Below are positions 42,295-63,008 of a DNA stretch of 64,000 nt, in pieces. The stretch spans positions 4,011 to 68,010 of the forward strand of contig JAFXEX010000006.1 in NCBI GenBank assembly GCA_017520825.1, given 5' to 3'. Below the pieces are notes generated by a model that was given only the letters and a program-made list of their open reading frames with translations, was not told the DNA's origin and searched no databases. The translations under genes were made by a program, and so were the position numbers. Every line of letters begins with the position of its first letter. The stretch's first letter is position 1. This DNA comes from Clostridia bacterium (lineage in GTDB: Bacteria > Bacillota > Clostridia > Oscillospirales > SIG627).

Positions 42295-43467
42295 TTATCT
42301 CTCTTTGTTCTTGGGTGAAAGCATATACCAGAAGGAGCCCGAAAGGAATACAGAGGAGTAAAGACCTGCCAATATTCCTACGATGAGAGGAAGTGCGAAT
42401 TCCTTGATTGAATGTACTCCGAAGATATAAATCATACCTATTGTGAAGAGAGTTGTAATGGTTGTGTTTATAGAGCGCATAAGAGTCTGACGGGCGCTGA
42501 TATTAATTACCACGCCAAAGTCGGTTCTGCCCATTTTCTTACGGTTTTCACGCACACGGTCAAAGAGAATGATGGTAGCGTTAATAGAATAACCGAGAAT
42601 GGTGAGCATTACGGCAATAATGTTTGAGCTGACAGGTATGCCGAATACTGCGTATGAAGCAATTACGATAATTATATCGTGAATGAGGCAAAGAATTGAA
42701 GCGATAGCAGATCTGAATTCAAATCTTACCGTGATGTAAACCAGCATAAGAATAACGGCAATGACCGTTGCAACAACTGCAGAGCGCTTAATCTCGTTTG
42801 AAATTGAAGCACTTATTCTTGATTCTGCGATTACCTCAATCGGCTCTGTTCCACCGTAAGTTATTTCAACTGTTTCAAGCTCCTCGGTTGTTTCGTAAGG
42901 AGTTGTTTCAACTATTTCATCAGCAGTTTCATCTGCAGTTTCGTCTGCAGTTTCGTCTGCAGTTTCTTCAACTGTTTCGTCTGTGGTTTCGTCTGCAGTT
43001 TCGTCTGCAGTTTCGTCTGTGGTTTCGTCTGCTGTCTCGTCGGCAGTTTCATCTGCAGTTTCGTCTGTGGTTTCATCTGTAGTTTCGTCTGCAGTTTCTT
43101 CCTCTTCCTCAACCACGGGTGCGCCGTAGGCTATATTGAGAACGTTATAAACCTCCTCAACCACCTCGGGTGAAGCGTCGGCAGCCTTGATTATAACGCT
43201 GCTTGAATCGTCGCCCGACTTCTGAACGGAGGTAACGGTAATGCCGTCTACGGCATTTACCATTTCTCTGATGTTGTCAAGCTCTGCCTTGTCAAGAGTC
43301 TTGTGAAGGTCATACTGAAGGGAGATACCACCTGCAAAGTCGGTGTCAAAGTTGAAGCCGTTGATGAACATAAAGGCAACGCCTATAAGAATAACTGCGA
43401 TAGCAATGGAGAACCAAAGCTTACGAAGTCCTACTATTTCCATTTGTTCTTTTGTAATGAATTTCAT
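42295..43467 (-). CDS. secF: protein translocase subunit SecF with an acidic tandem-repeat insertion
   Basis: SecF N-terminus (KLWFSIAIAVILIGV..FDTDFAGG) and a C-terminal 6-TM SecDF domain. Carries an inserted (A/T)DET repeat block. Confidence 0.9.
   Translation of the reverse strand: MKFITKEQMEIVGLRKLWFSIAIAVILIGVAFMFINGFNFDTDFAGGISLQYDLHKTLDKAELDNIREMVNAVDGITVTSVQKSGDDSSSVIIKAADASPEVVEEVYNVLNIAYGAPVVEEEEETADETTDETTDETADETADETADETTDETADETADETTDETVEETADETADETADETADEIVETTPYETTEELETVEITYGGTEPIEVIAESRISASISNEIKRSAVVATVIAVILMLVYITVRFEFRSAIASILCLIHDIIIVIASYAVFGIPVSSNIIAVMLTILGYSINATIILFDRVRENRKKMGRTDFGVVINISARQTLMRSINTTITTLFTIGMIYIFGVHSIKEFALPLIVGILAGLYSSVFLSGSFWYMLSPKNKER
42917..43097 (-). repeat. 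12-bp tandem repeat (~15 units) encoding (T/A)DET(T/A)DET inside secF
   Basis: Unit GTTTCGTCTGCA (plus strand) repeated with minor variants. It produces spurious ORFs in other frames. Confidence 0.9.
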
Positions 43468-47067: not shown

Positions 47068-47069
47068 CA

Positions 47070-47101
47070 AAAAGCAAGACGAAAATTCGTCTTGCTTTTT
47101 T
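47070..47101 (+). terminator. intrinsic terminator of alr
   Basis: AAAAGCAAGACG-AAAA-TTCGTCTTGCTTTTTT. Confidence 0.85.
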
Positions 47102-47103
47102 AA

Positions 47104-47267
47104 TGCAGAATGCAAAATGCAGAATGCAAAATTATGGTTAATTTGCCCTTGGCAAATTTTCCTTATCGTTTGCGAAGCAAACATATCGCGTGTGAAACAC
47201 ATATCGCATTCCATTCGGAATATATCGCGTTGTTACAGACAACATATCGCGCATAACGCAGTTATGC
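47104..47267. repeat. terminator-linked heptad / word-hairpin array (element A)
   Basis: TGCAGAA TGCAAAA TGCAGAA TGCAAAA heptads at 47104-47131, followed by mini-hairpins. The hairpins are AATTTGCC-CTT-GGCAAATT, TTTGC-GAA-GCAAA, GTGT-GAA-ACAC, ATTCC..GGAAT, GTTG..CAAC and GCATAAC-GCA-GTTATGC. Four copies of the word ATATCGC separate them. Confidence 0.8.
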
Positions 47268-47272
47268 CCTTT

Positions 47273-49135
47273 TTAGCCCAAATATGAAGCCTTATACAAG
47301 CTGTGCCAACGAAGGAATACCAATATAACCCACAGCTTGCGATAATTGTCCTCACTGCCGTCACGGTGCGCATCAAGAAGGCGAAGCGCCTCCTTCTTGT
47401 CGATATATTCGTCGGCGCCCGAATTTACGATGATATCCTTTGCCCAATCGTAAAGCTCACGTCTGAGCCATTTACGCACGGGTACGGGGTAGCCAAGCTT
47501 TGGACGCATTACGGTTTCCTCGTTTACAAGGTCACGGAAGGCGTGACGGAAAATATACTTGGTAGTGCCGTGGGAAAGCTTTTCCTCTGTGGCAAGTGTT
47601 GAGGCAAGCTCGAACACCTCTTTGTCAAGGAAGGGCACTCTGACTTCCAGTGAATGAGCCATACTCAATCTGTCGCCCTTAACCAGAATATCGCCACGAA
47701 GCCAGGTATTCATATCTACGTACTGCATCTGTGTAATTCCGGGCAAGCCCTGAACGTCACGGTAAATATCACGGGTAACGTCGGTGAAATGCACCGAGGG
47801 GTCAAAGGTTTTGAGAATGGACCTTTTGCTCTCCTCGTCAAAAATAAATGCGTTTCCAACGTATCTGTCCGAAAGTGGAGTAGTTCCACGGTAGAGAAGC
47901 TGTTTTCCCTTAACCTTATCGGGAAGCACTCGTGAGAGCCAATTCAAAGGCGTTTTTACAAGCTTTGGAAGTGAATATATCTTAGACGAGGTAAGAGTTT
48001 CGTTATATACTCTGTAGCCACCGAAAAGCTCGTCGGAGCCCTCTCCCGAAAGCACCTCCTTCAAGTGACGCGCAGCCTCCTCACAAATGAGATAAATCGC
48101 CATTGTTGAGGGGTCTGCCATGGGAAAGTCAAGGTGATAAACCACCTTGTCAAAGGCTCGCTTGAAGTCCTCAAGCCCTGCCACAAGCTTTATATGCTCT
48201 ACGTCAAGATGCTCTGCAATGCCCGACGCCTCGTCTATTTCGGAATATTCCTTTACGCCGAAGGCGACTGTAAACGCCTTTATGCCGGGGTTGAGCTTAC
48301 TTGCCGTTGCAGTTATAACGGCAGAATCTATACCTCCCGACAGGAAGGTGCCTACGTCAACGTCACTTATCATATGATACTCCACCGACTTTTCAACGGT
48401 ACGGCGAAGTAGCTCTGCCTTCTTTTCAAAATCGTCTGATTTCTGAGGTCGGAAGGTGGGAGTGTAGTATCTCTCAACTCTCACGTCACAGTCTGCCGAA
48501 AAGTCACACACCATATAATGCCCTGCAGGGAGTATTTTTATCTCGGGGTGAAGGGTTGAGGGCTCGGGAACGTACTGATAGGTAAAATAATGCTGAAGCT
48601 GTGTTTTGTCAATAGAGGTCTTATCGAGAGATGGGTCAAGGTAAAACGCCTTTGACTCCGAGGAAAAGGACACTCTTCCCTCTCGGTGCATATAGTAAAG
48701 GGGCTTTATGCCGAAGGGGTCTCTGCCCAGCATTACGGTATTTTTTTCCTTATCGTAGAAGCAGAAGGCGAACATACCGCGAAGCTTATTGATAAAGCGC
48801 TCTCCCTCAATGGAGAAGAGTGTGAGCATTACCTCTATTTCCGAGTTGGTTTCAAAGGTATAGCCCTCTTTTATAAGCTCTGCTCTCAGGTCACGGTAAT
48901 TGTATATCTCACCGTTGAAAATACCCACGTATCTGTCGCCGTACTCAAAGGGCTGACTTCCCTTTTCAAGGTCGATTATACTGAGACGGCGAAAGGCAAT
49001 GGAAAGCCTTTCAAAGTTCAGCGCTTTATCCTCGTCGGGTCCTCGGTGAGCGATAGCCTGTGACATTCTGGTAATAAGGTCTCTCTCCTCGTTTTCAAGG
49101 GGAGCGTTTTTAAACATTCCTACGAAACCGCACAA
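47273..49135 (-). CDS. asnB: asparagine synthase (glutamine-hydrolysing)
   Basis: MCGFVG N-terminal nucleophile and SGGIDS PP-loop; 620 aa. Confidence 0.95.
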   Translation of the reverse strand: MCGFVGMFKNAPLENEERDLITRMSQAIAHRGPDEDKALNFERLSIAFRRLSIIDLEKGSQPFEYGDRYVGIFNGEIYNYRDLRAELIKEGYTFETNSEIEVMLTLFSIEGERFINKLRGMFAFCFYDKEKNTVMLGRDPFGIKPLYYMHREGRVSFSSESKAFYLDPSLDKTSIDKTQLQHYFTYQYVPEPSTLHPEIKILPAGHYMVCDFSADCDVRVERYYTPTFRPQKSDDFEKKAELLRRTVEKSVEYHMISDVDVGTFLSGGIDSAVITATASKLNPGIKAFTVAFGVKEYSEIDEASGIAEHLDVEHIKLVAGLEDFKRAFDKVVYHLDFPMADPSTMAIYLICEEAARHLKEVLSGEGSDELFGGYRVYNETLTSSKIYSLPKLVKTPLNWLSRVLPDKVKGKQLLYRGTTPLSDRYVGNAFIFDEESKRSILKTFDPSVHFTDVTRDIYRDVQGLPGITQMQYVDMNTWLRGDILVKGDRLSMAHSLEVRVPFLDKEVFELASTLATEEKLSHGTTKYIFRHAFRDLVNEETVMRPKLGYPVPVRKWLRRELYDWAKDIIVNSGADEYIDKKEALRLLDAHRDGSEDNYRKLWVILVFLRWHSLYKASYLG

Positions 49136-54890: not shown

Positions 54891-55403
54891 ATGGATATTT
54901 TAGATATTTTAAAAAGCCGTTATTCCGTAAGGGATTATTCCGACAGGCAGATTCCGTCGGATATTCTTGAAAAAATTCTTGAAGCAGGACGGGTTGCCCC
55001 GACAGCAAAAAATCAACAGCCACAGAGAGTTTTCGTTTTGCAAAGCAAGGAAGCCATTGAAAAAATACGTGGAATTACCCCCAGCGCCTACAACGCCCCC
55101 ACGGTGCTTCTGATTTGCGCCGATATGGACGTGGCGTGGCACAGAACGAGAGATTCCTGGTGCGCAGCGCCCATCGACACCTCAATCGTTACTTGCCATA
55201 TGATGCTTGAAGCCGAAGCCCTTGGGGTAGGCTCCTGCTGGGTGTGTGCCTTTGATGCGCAGAAGGTTATTGACGCCTTTGATTTGCCCGAAAATTATTA
55301 TCCCTATTCCCTTCTGGACCTTGGCTATGCGTCCGACACCTGCGAGCCCAATCCACGACATTTTGAGAGAGTGCCCATTGAGGACACAGTCAAGTATATT
55401 TGA
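54891..55403 (+). CDS. nitroreductase-family protein
   Basis: LKSRYSVRDYSDRQIP...APTAKNQQP; 170 aa. Confidence 0.85.
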   Translation: MDILDILKSRYSVRDYSDRQIPSDILEKILEAGRVAPTAKNQQPQRVFVLQSKEAIEKIRGITPSAYNAPTVLLICADMDVAWHRTRDSWCAAPIDTSIVTCHMMLEAEALGVGSCWVCAFDAQKVIDAFDLPENYYPYSLLDLGYASDTCEPNPRHFERVPIEDTVKYI

Positions 55404-55430
55404 CGGCGTGCCTTTTGGGTGAGACCCAAA

Positions 55431-55688
55431 CAAATGCAGAATGCATTAAAAAAGCAAGAGGAAAACTCCTCTTGACTTTTTACAGTTATATTCGCCATTC
55501 GGCGAGTTATATTCGCTAACGCAAGTTATATTGCTTCGCAGTTATATTCCCTTCGGGAGTTAAGGTTGATTTGCTCTGCAAATCTTCAATAATTGTAAAT
55601 TTCGCAGAGCGAAATTGTCCTTAATTGTGCATTGTGAATTGTGCACTGTGCATTATAAAAGCAAGAGGAATACTCCTCTTGCTTTTGC
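55431..55688. repeat. terminator-linked heptad / word-hairpin array (element B)
   Basis: TGCAGAATGCA, hairpin 55449-55483, then GTTATATT x4 (55485, 55506, 55525, 55541) separated by mini-hairpins (CGCC-ATTC-GGCG, TGC-TTC-GCA, TCCC-TTC-GGGA). These are followed by nested hairpins, heptads at 55621-55654 and terminator hairpin 55657-55686. Positions 55541-55688 are the reverse complement of 60012-60160. Confidence 0.85.
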
Positions 55689-55710
55689 TTTAGCCCAAAT
55701 ATGAAGCCGT

Positions 55711-55954
55711 AAAGGCGCACAGATTTGGAGATAAAATCGCGGAGTGCGAAGGCGTCGGCGTACAACGGTACGCCAGTCCGAGCAACACGCGAAGAAAATG
55801 AAATTTTTACAGATGGAAGAAAGCGAAGCTTTCTACCTTAAAAGACTTGTAACAATGAAGAAGTGTGTTCACGCTTTCTAACAGTCGCGAACACACTATC
55901 GTCAAAATATAATTATCATTTCATTTTCGGTTTTAGCCCAAATATGAAGCCGTA
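55711..55954. repeat. 244-bp direct repeat, copy 1
   Basis: Aligns with 56776-57019 with about 9 mismatches by eye. Contains internal hairpins (GGCGTAC-AACG-GTACGCC, GAAAGC-GAA-GCTTTC, GTGTGTTC..GAACACAC) and a long-range stem GAAAATGAAAT/ATTTCATTTTC. Confidence 0.9.
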
Positions 55955-55956
55955 AG

Positions 55957-56331
55957 CTATTTGTTGTTAATTATCCAATCAAGCAGGTCCTCGTAGCCCA
56001 TTTTTCCTGATGCAACGGCAAGTCCTACACGGGCAACGTCGTCTACAGTTGGTTTTATTTTTATACCGTTGACTTCAAGGAAGGTCAGAAGCACGTACAT
56101 TCCTATACGCTTGTTTCCGTCTACGAAAGCGTGATTTGAAATGAGAGAATAGCCAATCCTCGCACCCTTTTCCTCTTTTGTCGGATATAGCTCCTTGCCG
56201 TCAAAGGTTTGAAATGCCGATTCAAGGGCGCTGTCAAGCAAGGCTATATCACGAAGGCTTGGGTCTCCACCTGTTTCTTCGGTAATAAGCTTATGCAATA
56301 AAAGCACCTTGTCTTTGCTGAATTTTATCAT
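55957..56331 (-). CDS. doc: Doc/Fic-family toxin
   Basis: 124 aa with Fic motif HAFVDGNKRIG. Overlaps phd by 4 nt. Confidence 0.9.
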   Translation of the reverse strand: MIKFSKDKVLLLHKLITEETGGDPSLRDIALLDSALESAFQTFDGKELYPTKEEKGARIGYSLISNHAFVDGNKRIGMYVLLTFLEVNGIKIKPTVDDVARVGLAVASGKMGYEDLLDWIINNK

Positions 56332-56570
56332 TTTGCAAGCTCCTCAAAGGCGAGACGGTAACGGTTTAAAACTCTCATCGCCACAAAATCAATTTTTTCA
56401 TCGTCTGTCATTTCCAACGAGGTGTCATTTTCAAGGTCAATAAGCTTGTATTTGGGTTTGTTGTTTTTGAAAATGTATATTTCGCCCACTCTGTCAACGG
56501 CTCGGGCTACCTTTGAAAAATTCTGATTAGCTTCGGATATTGAAACTATTTGTTCTGTGTTTATTCTCAT
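56328..56570 (-). CDS. phd: Phd/YefM-family antitoxin
   Basis: About 80 aa: MRINTEQIVSISEANQNFSKVARAVDRVGEIYIFKNNKPKYKLIDL. The start was set at the ATG 7 nt after AGGAGG, because the ORF-track start lies inside the promoter. Confidence 0.75.
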   Translation of the reverse strand: MRINTEQIVSISEANQNFSKVARAVDRVGEIYIFKNNKPKYKLIDLENDTSLEMTDDEKIDFVAMRVLNRYRLAFEELAK

Positions 56571-56591
56571 CGTCATACCTCCTTTGTTTAT

Positions 56592-56620
56592 ATTATACAC
56601 ATATATTAGTATATTGTCAA
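56592..56620 (-). promoter_or_regulatory. consensus sigma-A promoter of phd-doc
   Basis: The minus strand reads TTGACA-17 nt-TATAAT. Confidence 0.75.
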
Positions 56621-56742
56621 CCTAAAATTTATACTAAATTTTGCCAATAGTCTAAATTTTGTGAATTCTAAACTGTGCATTAAAAGGCTTCATATTTAAA
56701 TTAGTTTAAAGTTGATAATTGAAAATGGAAAATTAACATTTA

Positions 56743-56772
56743 TTCTGCATTTTGCATTGTGCATTCTGCATT
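56743..56772. repeat. TGCAnnn heptad block (element C)
   Basis: The minus strand reads TGCAGAA TGCACAA TGCAAAA TGCAGAA directly after a T-run, the same arrangement as element A. Confidence 0.75.
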
Positions 56773-56775
56773 AAA

Positions 56776-57019
56776 AAAGGCGCGCAGATTTGGAGATAAA
56801 ATCGCGGAGTGCGAAGGCGTCGGCGTACAACGGTACGCCAGTCCGAGCAACACGCGAAGAAAATGAAATTTTTACAGATGAAAGAAAGCGAAGCTTTCTA
56901 CCTTGAAAAACTTGTAACAATGAAGAAGTGTGTTCACGCCTTATGATACTCGCGAACACACTATCGTCAAAATATAATTATCATTTCATTTTCGGTTTTA
57001 GCCCAAATATGAAGCCGTA
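56776..57019. repeat. 244-bp direct repeat, copy 2
   Basis: See copy 1. It ends 5 nt from the stop codon of the SLH gene. Confidence 0.9.
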
Positions 57020-57023
57020 TCTT

Positions 57024-58274
57024 TTAATACAGCTTTACCGTATTACCCTTCATATACCTTGTCATCAGTGCCGACACCTCTGCCCTTGTGGCTTGTTTTT
57101 TGGGCGAAAGGCGCTTGTAGTTGTCGCCACCCATATAGCCCTTGTCAACGCAATAGGTAACGGCTTCCTTCGCCCAGTCAGAAACGCTTTCAAAGTCCGA
57201 AAACTCCACCTCTTTATCAACGGGGGAAGCCTTTGCGAAACGGAAAAGCATTACGGCCATTTCCTCTCGCGTTATGGGCTTATCGGGGGCGAAAAGAAGG
57301 TCACCAACACCGTTTACTATTCCTGCTCCACTTGCCCATCTGACGTATTTTCCGTACCACGAATTATAGTCCACGTCGGTGAACTCCATTTCGTTTTCAT
57401 ACTTACCAAGAGCGCCCAGCTTTCTTTCGTACACTCTGCCAAGCACGGTGACGAACATGGCTCTGGTCATAGAGGTATCGGGCTCAAAGCCCATTCCCAT
57501 TCCGTTGAAAAGAGAGGCCTGCATAACGTATGAAATATCGTCTCTGCCCCAATGGTCCCTGGTATCGTCGAAAACGGTAATGCGCTTAGCTACCTTTTCC
57601 TCACCAAGCTTCACCATATTTTTATAGGGGTGCTGACTTCCGTAGGCGTTGAATTTATGACCACCCATCTTGGTATTTACACCCGTAATTTCCTCGTGCA
57701 AATCGTCAATTTCAATGGACAAGCCTATTTCGTCCCCTGCCTTTTTGCCGAAGGACAGAGGAACGGCAAACTCTACGGTGTAGCCGTCAGAATTTATCGA
57801 GGTAGCGCAAGCGTGCTCGCCCTCGCACATAGCCTTGTAGTTAGTGGTGGCAATGCCCATTGCGTCTCATTGAAAAATATACTGATTTGCCTGTACGGCA
57901 TCGCCAAGCTCAGGATAATAGACACGAAGCTCAACTGCATCGTTTTCCCAGGAAAGCTCCTTGATGTTCTTTATTATCCACCTCTCGCCCCTTGAAAACA
58001 CGGCGTCGTCGGTAACGGTGATGCAGGCGTAAAGGTGACTGTCGTCGTAAAGAAAATACGCTACGGCGCTGTCACCGATTGAGCCGTCGGCAGTTCCACC
58101 CTTCGAGGTATAAAAGGTGTTTTCCTGTCCGTTCAGCTCTATTCTGTAGCTTTCCTGATAGGTGGTGTCAAGAATTCCGTCCACTATGGGAGTGGCAATT
58201 TTTATGCTATCAAAAGCCAGACACGTCACGGAAAGCGCCATCAAAAGCACTATTGATATAATTATTTTTTTCAT
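57024..58274 (-). pseudogene. secreted CBM9/DOMON-like plus 3x SLH cell-wall protein interrupted by one in-frame TGA
   Basis: ORFs 57867-58274 (signal peptide plus the first half of a carbohydrate-binding-like domain) and 57024-57860 (second half plus three SLH repeats) are in the same frame. Only TGA-GAC-GCA separates them before the ATG. Confidence 0.7.
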
Positions 58275-60011: not shown

Positions 60012-60044
60012 AAAAGGCAAGAGGATTTTCCTCTTGCCTTTTTT
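60012..60044 (+). terminator. intrinsic terminator
   Basis: AAAAGGCAAGAGG-ATTTT-CCTCTTGCCTTTTTT. Confidence 0.85.
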
Positions 60045-60046
60045 AA

Positions 60047-60160
60047 TGCACAGTGCACAATTCACAATGCACAGTTAAGGATAATTTCGCTATGCGAAAT
60101 TTACAATCATTGAAGATTTGCAGAGCAAATCAACTTTAACTCCCGAAGGGAATATAACTG
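60047..60160. repeat. heptad / hairpin element D (inverted copy of the right part of element B)
   Basis: TGCACAG TGCACAA TTCACAA TGCACAG, then the long-range stem AGTTAAGG..CTTTAACT enclosing AATTTCGC-TAT-GCGAAATT, CAAT-C-ATTG and GATTTGC-AGA-GCAAATC. These are followed by TCCC-GAA-GGGA and AATATAAC. Confidence 0.85.
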
Positions 60161-61976: not shown

Positions 61977-62026
61977 ACTCATAGGAGATAGGAAAAAATG
62001 CTTCAGAATGGACACTGTAGATTGTT

Positions 62027-62379
62027 ATGAATTGATGCTGATGCATCATGAATTGGCTCTAGCCATGAATTCTCGCTTCGCTCCATGAATTGAAATTCTG
62101 CGAATTTCATTAAGGTAAAAAATGCAAAGCATTTTTATTACATAGGAAAATTGCATTAGCAATTTGCTTGTAACAAACAAAGTTTACCTATAAAATCGTG
62201 AGCGTAAGCGAACATCAGTTGCCGAAGTCGACTTTTTATTTAATTTTACAAAGCCCAAAGGCTTTGTTTCCGAAACGCACCGTAAGGTGCAATTCATGAG
62301 CCAAAGGCTCAATTCATGAAAGCCTTGCTTTCAATTCATGCCAACGGCAATTCATGGCGAAGCTCTGCTTCGCTTTTTT
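62027..62379. repeat. word-hairpin element E with complementary arms
   Basis: Left arm: (C)ATGAATT x4 at 62027, 62047, 62064 and 62084. Right arm: AATTCATG x4 at 62291, 62311, 62333 and 62349. Mini-hairpins sit between the words, and about 180 nt of further mini-hairpins sit between the arms. It ends in the plus-strand terminator GCGAAGC-TCT-GCTTCGC-TTTTTT (62357-62379). Confidence 0.85.
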
Positions 62380-62419: not shown

Positions 62420-62767
62420 CTATCCCTCAAGTCCGAGGCTGACCGAAATGGCGCTGTTCACCTTTTCCATGGTCTCGTCCTCAAGATGCCCCATTTTTTC
62501 CTTCAATCGTTTCTTGTCGATTGTACGTACCTGTTCAAGAAGAATAACCGAATTCTTTGCAAGCCCGAAACGGTCAGCCATAACCTCGATATGTGTGGGA
62601 AGCTTGGTTTTGTCAACTCGGCTGGTTATTGCGGCGGCTATTACCGTAGGCGAATGCTTATTGCCCACGTCGTTCTGAACTATTACCACAGGTCTTATAC
62701 CACCCTGCTCCGAGCCTACCACGGGACTTAAATCGGCGTAAAATATATCTCCTCTTTTGACTGTCAT
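62420..62767 (-). CDS. mazF: MazF/EndoA (PemK-family) endoribonuclease toxin
   Basis: 115 aa; [47 protein letters not shown] is near-identical in pattern to Bacillus EndoA. Confidence 0.95.
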
Positions 62768-63008
62768 GGTTTTTTCTCCTTTCTTTCGTTCATTTCTATT
62801 TTTTTCAAAGAACGGAGCTTTTATTCAAGAGAGGAGAATTTATATTGCCTTCCCCAGCGTATGCATTTATATAAAAAAGGGAAAAATATATTGGGTTCAT
62901 TTTCAACGCTCAATTTACCGAAATATTTTTCGTTTTGAGCCGTAAACCCCAATATATTTCCGAAATTTTTACGGAAAAAGCTTTTTTAAGAGAAAATTCG
63001 ACCGATAC

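Follow-up and report, generated by a model that had tools for sequence, protein, structure and literature searches.

A candidate family of structured, modular palindromic repeats flanks a phd-doc toxin-antitoxin module in an uncultured Oscillospiraceae bacterium

Introduction

Repetitive extragenic palindromic (REP) elements, with the bacterial interspersed mosaic elements (BIMEs) and the REP doublets forming hairpins (REPINs), are mobilized by Y1 transposases known as REP-associated tyrosine transposases (RAYTs), and REP/REPIN-RAYT systems are recognized by a copy number of tens to hundreds per genome, with one RAYT gene that has REPs on either side. The attC sites of integrons are 57-141 nt long with R''/R' core sites (RYYYAAC ... 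GTTRRRY) at the helix ends, and the toxin-antitoxin modules found in integrons are reportedly there to counter deletion between repeats. Miniature inverted-repeat transposable elements (MITEs) are generally <200 bp, with some reaching ~400 bp, and the ends of mycobacterial interspersed repetitive units (MIRUs) overlap adjacent genes (PMC3184786). Here we describe a repeat unit, E, two copies of which flank a phd-doc toxin-antitoxin module in a 64,000-nt stretch of a Clostridia bacterium genome (GenBank assembly GCA_017520825.1, contig JAFXEX010000006.1, positions 4,011 to 68,010; hereafter the window), and compare it with these systems.

We consider it somewhat probable that E represents an undescribed, lineage-restricted, non-coding family of interspersed modular palindromic repeats of the REP/BIME/REPIN, BOX or MITE kind. 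Because it has terminal inverted repeats, a direct copy of its terminal 24-mer at its flank, diverged homologues at other loci and a tandem form, the unit behaves as an interspersed repeat element. A first-pass annotation of the window, made from the letters alone, had set a known insertion sequence (IS) or MITE end against its own proposal of a structured RNA; the element-like behavior is there, and no known element was matched. Our literature search returned no published element of this kind in uncultured ruminant-gut Oscillospiraceae, and we know of none.

Results

Repeat finding and BLAST both recovered the direct repeats that the first-pass annotation had placed around phd-doc. The copies (55711-55954 and 56776-57019) are 244 nt long, align without gaps at 96.3% identity and lie 1065 nt apart from start to start. 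BLAST resolves the roughly nine differences that had been noticed to exactly nine, at 55719, 55816, 55840, 55844, 55875, 55878, 55880, 55882 and 55884. The last five occupy the loop of the hairpin GTGTGTTCACGC/CGCGAACACAC (55863-55896) and leave its stem intact, as had been seen, and none of the nine falls in a helix of the consensus fold (0/9), all being unpaired. Besides these two full units, the window holds three solo A or A-like motifs, A being the terminal 24-mer of the unit (TTTAGCCCAAATATGAAGCCGTAA).

A is complementary to the unit's 5' part, a feature that the annotation had not mentioned, and it matches the window four times where none is expected: at the two unit ends, once directly ahead of copy 1 (55689-55712) and once by itself (47272-47295). 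In the consensus fold of four homologues it pairs with A' (GGCGCACAGATTTGGAGATAAAATCG) to form P1, a 19-pair imperfect helix closing the whole unit. When the upstream A is present, the minimum free energy (MFE) fold offers an alternative local hairpin between that A and A'. The order of parts is A' - P2 - P3 - A over ~245 bp, where P3 is a three-way junction made of P3a and the variable P3b (Table 1).

The predicted fold is more stable than expected from composition, with z-scores against shuffles of -4.5 on the minus and -5.4 on the plus strand (0/200 shuffles as good). All of the helices drawn in the first-pass annotation appear in the MFE folds, namely GAAAATGAAAT/ATTTCATTTTC closing around AGAAAGC-GAA-GCTTTCT and the variable hairpin, and GGCGTAC-AACG-GTACGCC. 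Covariation was tested on a four-sequence alignment from three lineages, with 500 shuffles and slid alignments as controls. In this alignment 96.6% of cells are paired, and 11 base pairs show double compensatory changes against 4.7 +/- 1.4 in the shuffles, none of which reached 11 (0/500); the slid controls gave 0-2 such pairs. The double changes are spread over the A':A helix (four), P2 (four), P3a (two) and P3b (one), and the four of the A':A helix (helices 1-2) are found in the diverged unit L022 described below. Because the helices are kept in three diverged lineages through 11 double compensatory changes, the fold of the unit is, on the evidence of this alignment, real and under selection.

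The strand is another matter. No one-sided G-U changes occur in helices 1-7, where all covariation is of the Watson-Crick type. A single invariant wobble (columns 83/278) reads U-G on the plus strand, which is also the strand carrying the G-U of P3b in L022, whereas P3b in the window gains pairing on the minus strand, as an A-C mismatch turns into G-U there. Since the wobble and mismatch evidence thus favors opposite strands in different copies, the alignment does not choose between RNA and single-stranded DNA, nor between strands.

Several other identities were considered for the unit. A protein-coding reading, which the first-pass annotation had named as a competitor, was rejected: all six frames are interrupted by stops, whose places differ among copy 1, copy 2 and L003 (below), and in the longest shared frame ~14/16 changed codons are non-synonymous by inspection; no frame is conserved. 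Searching the whole window with Rfam 15 at the gathering threshold returned a single tRNA only, and an E-value scan of 55300-57200, which also covered the known self-cleaving ribozymes, gave nothing on the unit above 22.6 bits, in agreement with the earlier impression that no known non-coding RNA class fits. A search for a conserved promoter of the unit found none. A diversity-generating retroelement as the source of the variable loop was rejected, as the changes are not adenine-specific, there is no reverse transcriptase, and the changes belong to one exchanged tract. Inspection of A showed no dif/Xer-like dyad symmetry.

Two further assemblies contain diverged units, at loci other than this one. 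When 20 nt of A were used to scan the representative genomes of GTDB, one real locus emerged, L003, in an Oscillospiraceae metagenome-assembled genome (MAG) that is syntenic with 47.3-54.7 kb of the window. The L003 unit is ~72% identical, carries ATTTTCGGTTTTAGCCCAAATATGAAGCC on both flanks and lies downstream of an asnB-like gene; at that place the window has nothing but a solo A. The other two matches of that scan were discarded, L001 as the start of a His-tRNA synthetase-like gene (by eye) and L002 as a chance match. A search of the protein collection with a one-frame translation of the unit led through a spurious open reading frame (ORF), P0001, to the locus L022, where a third diverged unit has a different but related A (TTACACCCAAAAGACACACCGTG) on both flanks and stands upstream of a divergently placed gene, hence not in a 3' untranslated region (UTR). 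A complete scan of 1.84 billion representative proteins yielded one further unit-derived ORF, P0242, also spurious, which reads through two tandem units that have one A in common. The closest doc (94% amino-acid and 90% DNA identity) is on L026, a 956-nt Logan contig, where the doc stop is followed by TTTTT, A and the first bases of P3 before the contig ends; Logan assembly contigs break at A/E.

Searches of viral contigs, phages and plasmids gave no match to the unit. In the Joint Genome Institute (JGI) metagenomes the A 20-mer had 0 matches and the A' 19-mer 12 chance matches only, and ~220 kb of related loci searched with an nhmmer profile and a covariance model held no further copies. The family is real, to judge from these homologues, and rare in the collections searched.

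Between the two copies lies phd-doc, which has a perfect sigma-70 promoter (TTGACA-17-TATAAT, 56620-56592) and forms a conserved DNA module of ~680 bp (56636-55953) that begins shortly before the -35 box and ends at the stop. Conservation of the module is unusually high, thousands of Clostridia MAG proteins being 85-94% identical to this Doc, and its chromosomal site differs from lineage to lineage (loci L026-L044, many of them on contigs <2 kb). At least four other contexts lack the unit: khpA/yjeF, before prmA, Na/Ala symporter/cotF, and after a TetR gene. Among the loci of doc homologues the unit was found at none except L026, and related nitroreductase loci in three related MAGs have neither unit nor phd-doc. 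As judged across these loci, phd-doc is an independent module. Segment X, which separates it from copy 2, holds an inverted 12-nt piece of A (56686-56697) and is absent from the other phd-doc loci.

On the minus strand, the order is SLH gene - A - E (copy 2) - [X - phd - doc] - A - E (copy 1) - A - terminator hairpin. X and phd-doc together span 820 nt and lie exactly at the A'|A junction, which measures 0-2 nt at copy 1, 12 nt in L003, 12 nt in L022 and 820 nt with phd-doc. Bracketing the insert is an inverted pair made up of one A (55932-55955) and one A' (56779-56804).

The two copies also appear to exchange sequence. In other samples the same organism is represented by contigs L004-L007, which match the window at 99.92% identity across 12,375 nt (10 mismatches). 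Of the 10 mismatches, eight fall in 55816-55884, a 69-nt patch of copy 1 in which the other strains carry the copy 2 bases. This pattern points to a gene conversion tract, assembly collapse in the other metagenome assemblies seeming less likely. The five loop differences, which the first-pass annotation had noted, lie within this one exchanged tract and are therefore not five independent mutations. That annotation had also proposed excision or duplication by homologous recombination between the copies; the conversion patch supports recombination between them, and no excised or deleted form was seen among the independent contigs with doc (n=5) or with the nitroreductase gene (n=8). No strain polymorphism was seen at the alr|asnB spacer or the doc locus. 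The copy 2 loop variant contains a promoter-like TTGACG-16-TATCAT (56970-56943, minus strand) that is missing from the copy 1 loop and is probably coincidental.

Units are bounded by A, can have one A in common when in tandem, and leave solo A remnants. A stands at stop codons or within a few nucleotides of them, oriented like the gene. Its start on the minus strand is 1-2 nt past the doc stop (55957-55959) and 3-4 nt past the stop of the CBM9-SLH gene (57024-57026), so the earlier placement of the copies just after these stops holds, with a measured distance of 1-4 nt in place of 3-5 nt. The string TTTGGG occurs within ~30 nt of the stop at 4/56 gene ends, against ~0.9 expected, and as all four are A-type, A belongs to the repeat system and is not a general signal. 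The idea of A as a general 3' UTR motif was rejected, A being carried by mosaic spacers only.

The solo A overlaps the end of an asnB-like gene (Table 1), whose L003 orthologue ends in ...HSMYLGVENL*. Both the window (47273-47300) and L003 (507-550) suggest an asnB-like C-terminus encoded by repeat-derived sequence; the L003 gene end, TATTTGGGCGTCGAAAATTTGTGAAAT, resembles the minus-strand unit start, TATTTGGGCTAAAACCGAAAATGAAAT. A further locus, L023, has an A-like motif ~25 nt past the asnB stop.

Table 1. Positions of the unit's parts, the phd-doc genes and related motifs in the window.
Feature	Positions	Strand	Remarks
Solo A	47272-47295	-	2 mismatches; last codons and TAA of asnB-like gene (...HSLYKASYLG*)
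A-like motif TGACGGCGTGCCTTTTGGGTGAGACCCAAAC	55401-55432	+	Overlaps nitroreductase stop; resembles L022-type A; own 7-bp mini hairpin
T2 AAAAGCAAGAGGAATACTCCTCTTGCTTTT	55657-55686		Terminator-like hairpin, 2 nt from left A
A, left copy TTTAGCCCAAATATGAAGCCGTAA	55689-55712		Immediately before copy 1; local pairing with A' possible
A' of copy 1 GGCGCACAGATTTGGAGATAAAATCG	55714-55739		Imperfect inverted repeat of A; P1; helices 1-2
P2 of copy 1	55739-55791		Long imperfect hairpin tipped by GGCGTAC-AACG-GTACGCC; helices 3-5
P3 of copy 1	55794-55928		Three-way junction; closing helix GAAAATGAAAT/ATTTCATTTTC around P3a and P3b
P3a of copy 1	55818-55834		Hairpin within P3
P3b of copy 1	55863-55896		Variable hairpin; loop 55875-55885
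A, right end of copy 1	55932-55955		1-2 nt past doc stop (minus strand)
doc	55957-56331	-	Fic/Doc toxin, 124 aa; PF02661
phd	56328-56570	-	Antitoxin, 80 aa as called in L004; PF02604
Segment X	56648-56775		Between phd-doc module and copy 2; AATGCAN heptads, AT-rich, mosaic
Copy 2	56776-57020		A' 56779-56804, P2, P3, A 56997-57020; upstream A absent

The spacers around the unit are mosaics of other repeats, namely bidirectional terminator hairpins, heptads (AATGCAN) and hairpin arrays. The hairpin T2 would end the minus-strand doc transcript after copy 1; a strict terminator scan missed T2 and flagged only its paralogue at 55455-55474. One recurring module places a bidirectional terminator-like hairpin, AAAAGCAAGAGGA..TCCTCTTGCTTTT, beside 4-5 AATGCAN heptads (47068-47132, 55432-55482, 55618-55686, 56742-56772 and 60013-60073), and 55539-55686 recurs inverted at 60013-60160 with 93% identity. 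Hairpin arrays lie at 55484-55562, 47170-47262 and, as an inverted pair, 62020-62100 and 62270-62350, with a partial copy at 60100-60160; each has 4-5 short variable hairpins and a constant 7-9-mer spacer of its own (AGTTATATT; CATATCGCG; ATGAATT / AATTCAT). Two of the arrays score 29.5 and 19.1 bits with the Rfam Gut-1 motif, below its gathering score of 50. A putative MazF/PemK-like toxin ORF (~62423-62770, minus strand, by eye) adjoins the ATGAATT arrays. The CBM9-SLH gene has a nonsense change at 57867 (T; G in L004/L006) that leaves ORFs of 278 and 135 aa, and is intact in other strains (416 aa). A 12-nt tandem repeat, TTTCGTCTGCAG (42915-43098, 15.3 copies, 82% matches), lies inside a SecD/SecF-family gene (42295-43467). 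None of the ~30 window proteins is a transposase or integrase, the genomic context being housekeeping, and the L003/L004 flanks encode no integrase.

Discussion

If E is a repeat family as we propose, its DNA may spread or rearrange by transposition or recombination at the A and A' ends, and the unit could be kept foldable because its single-stranded form is recognized, either as single-stranded DNA during mobilization or as read-through RNA in 3' UTRs. The mechanism of mobility, the transcription of the unit and any effect on the doc or SLH mRNA are inferences; the units are probably co-transcribed in 3' UTRs. The simplest history would involve recombination between units, with phd-doc arriving or being duplicated together with a unit, possibly through Campbell-type integration of a circle carrying phd-doc and one unit or through unequal exchange. 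Gene conversion between the two copies would have continued afterwards.

Several observations weigh against a repeat family. Inspection of the flanks of copy 1, copy 2, L003 and L022 showed no short target-site duplication, and no parent IS, RAYT or recombinase was found within the 64 kb of genome. In size and in complexity of folding the unit exceeds typical REPINs or MITEs, and it falls outside the definitions of MITEs, attC sites and Rfam families. Full units number four, in three lineages, plus fragments. An empty and a filled site within one species were not found, and collapse of the two copies during assembly of the other metagenomes might in principle account for the conversion tract. 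Finally, a three-way junction kept by covariation is also expected of a functional RNA.

Such an RNA is the foremost alternative, and we regard it as unlikely, if worth serious attention. The unit would be a ~250-300-nt 3' UTR element on the minus strand of doc and the SLH gene, or an independent small RNA, acting for instance as an exonuclease block, as a domain that the A:A' helix closes and RNase III processes, or as a terminator-like structure, and its copies would be RNA genes or modules and not selfish DNA. The compact multi-helix fold with covariation and the z-scores of -4.5 to -5.7 would suit this, as would the position of the unit or A past a stop codon and in gene orientation in 4/5 placements, the terminator-like hairpin after copy 1, the T6 after A' of copy 2 (minus strand), and the better pairing of the window's P3b on the minus strand. 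Yet one-sided G-U substitutions are absent from helices 1-7, the wobbles at columns 83/278 and in P3b of L022 put the strands in conflict, the L022 unit is not downstream of a co-oriented gene, there is neither a conserved promoter nor an Rfam family, and tandem copies and solo A remnants would be unexpected for a cis-regulatory RNA. Of the structured 3' UTR RNA put forward in the first-pass annotation, then, the conserved fold survives through covariation, whereas its RNA and 3' UTR form is weakened by Watson-Crick-only covariation, the strand conflict and the placement of L022. A repeat element and a functional RNA are not mutually exclusive.

The exact position of cargo at an A'|A junction of varying length (0-2, 12, 12 and 820 nt) also recalls site-specific recombination, in which A would be an att-like core, the folded unit an attC-like site, and an unlinked recombinase the agent moving cargo. 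We think this improbable. The minus-strand order gene-unit-gene-unit with a self-promoted toxin-antitoxin cassette between units fits it, and so do identical A motifs on both sides within a locus but different ones between lineages, the solo A sites, and a conserved structure with a variable center, as in attC. The window, however, has no integrase or recombinase and no RYYYAAC/GTTRRRY boxes, the unit is ~2x the longest attC, phd-doc occurs elsewhere without such flanks, no excised or empty form was observed, and homologous recombination between the 244-bp repeats explains the same layout. Similarly improbable is a whole undescribed Oscillospiraceae cassette system, in which A / A' and the folded unit would be the recombination sites, an unlinked recombinase or single-stranded DNA transposase would insert cargo such as phd-doc at the A'|A junctions of tandem units, and which would be a functional analogue of attC-bounded integron cassettes, unrelated in sequence. 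That the repeats are nothing more than a spacer segment duplicated locally, with incidental palindromes, no family and no function, is very unlikely: there are only two full copies in the window, 1 kb apart, but diverged homologues stand at unrelated loci in other organisms, and every helix is kept by compensatory changes.

As it stands, the novelty is modest and descriptive. The unit adds to the small structured bacterial repeats a family well supported by covariation in three lineages and hosted by uncultured ruminant-gut Oscillospiraceae, and it offers a case in which a toxin-antitoxin module occupies the precise junction of two repeats while gene conversion apparently continues between the flanking copies. 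Were the A / A' junction a site for cargo, it would represent a new route for moving small gene modules; were the unit a processed RNA, it would represent a new class of large structured RNA.

Comparison with known repeat systems

Among the described systems, attC sites resemble the unit in being structure-conserved, sequence-variable imperfect palindromes that follow genes, and chromosomal integrons likewise hold self-promoted toxin-antitoxin modules between two such sites. The locus differs from an integron in having no IntI, attI or R/L boxes and in showing one type of cargo, phd-doc. No intI integrase is encoded in the window or in the L003/L004 flanks. By inspection attC boxes were not found, the helix ends reading GGCGCAC.../...GAAGCC, and the length is ~245 nt.

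The BOX elements of Streptococcus pneumoniae and the mycobacterial MIRUs are, like E, modular and can be tandem with common boundary modules; they lie in transcribed spacers, as E probably does, and the A of E overlaps a gene at asnB much as a MIRU end does. E has no sequence relation to either, is much longer than a MIRU and lacks the boxA/B/C organization.

With the RNA-folding MITEs (ERIC/IRU, Correia/NEMIS, bcr1 and RUP), E has in common its non-coding nature, its size range (PMC3184786), the terminal inverted repeats around a core, the potential for long stem-loops, the occurrence at different loci in related genomes and the ability to overlap gene ends. Its A'/A repeats form 19 pairs over ~25 nt and co-vary in L022. 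E departs from MITEs in having no short target-site duplication, its own 24-30-nt end being repeated directly upstream instead, in having no known parent IS, and in a fold that is branched and not one long hairpin.

REPINs are simple hairpins of ~70-110 bp, whereas E spans ~245 bp with P2 and a three-way junction, and its inverted A'/A pair, which is extragenic, is split by a 190-nt structured core. A conserved tetranucleotide of the GTAG type was not recognized in E, and its host is an uncultured member of the Oscillospiraceae. In its general plan, E nevertheless resembles the REP/BIME/REPIN elements: it is extragenic and located at operon ends or between convergent genes, it combines short motifs in alternating orientation (A, A', A) with other modules in mosaic spacers, and it forms hairpins, leaves singlet remnants and would, like them, probably be co-transcribed in 3' UTRs.

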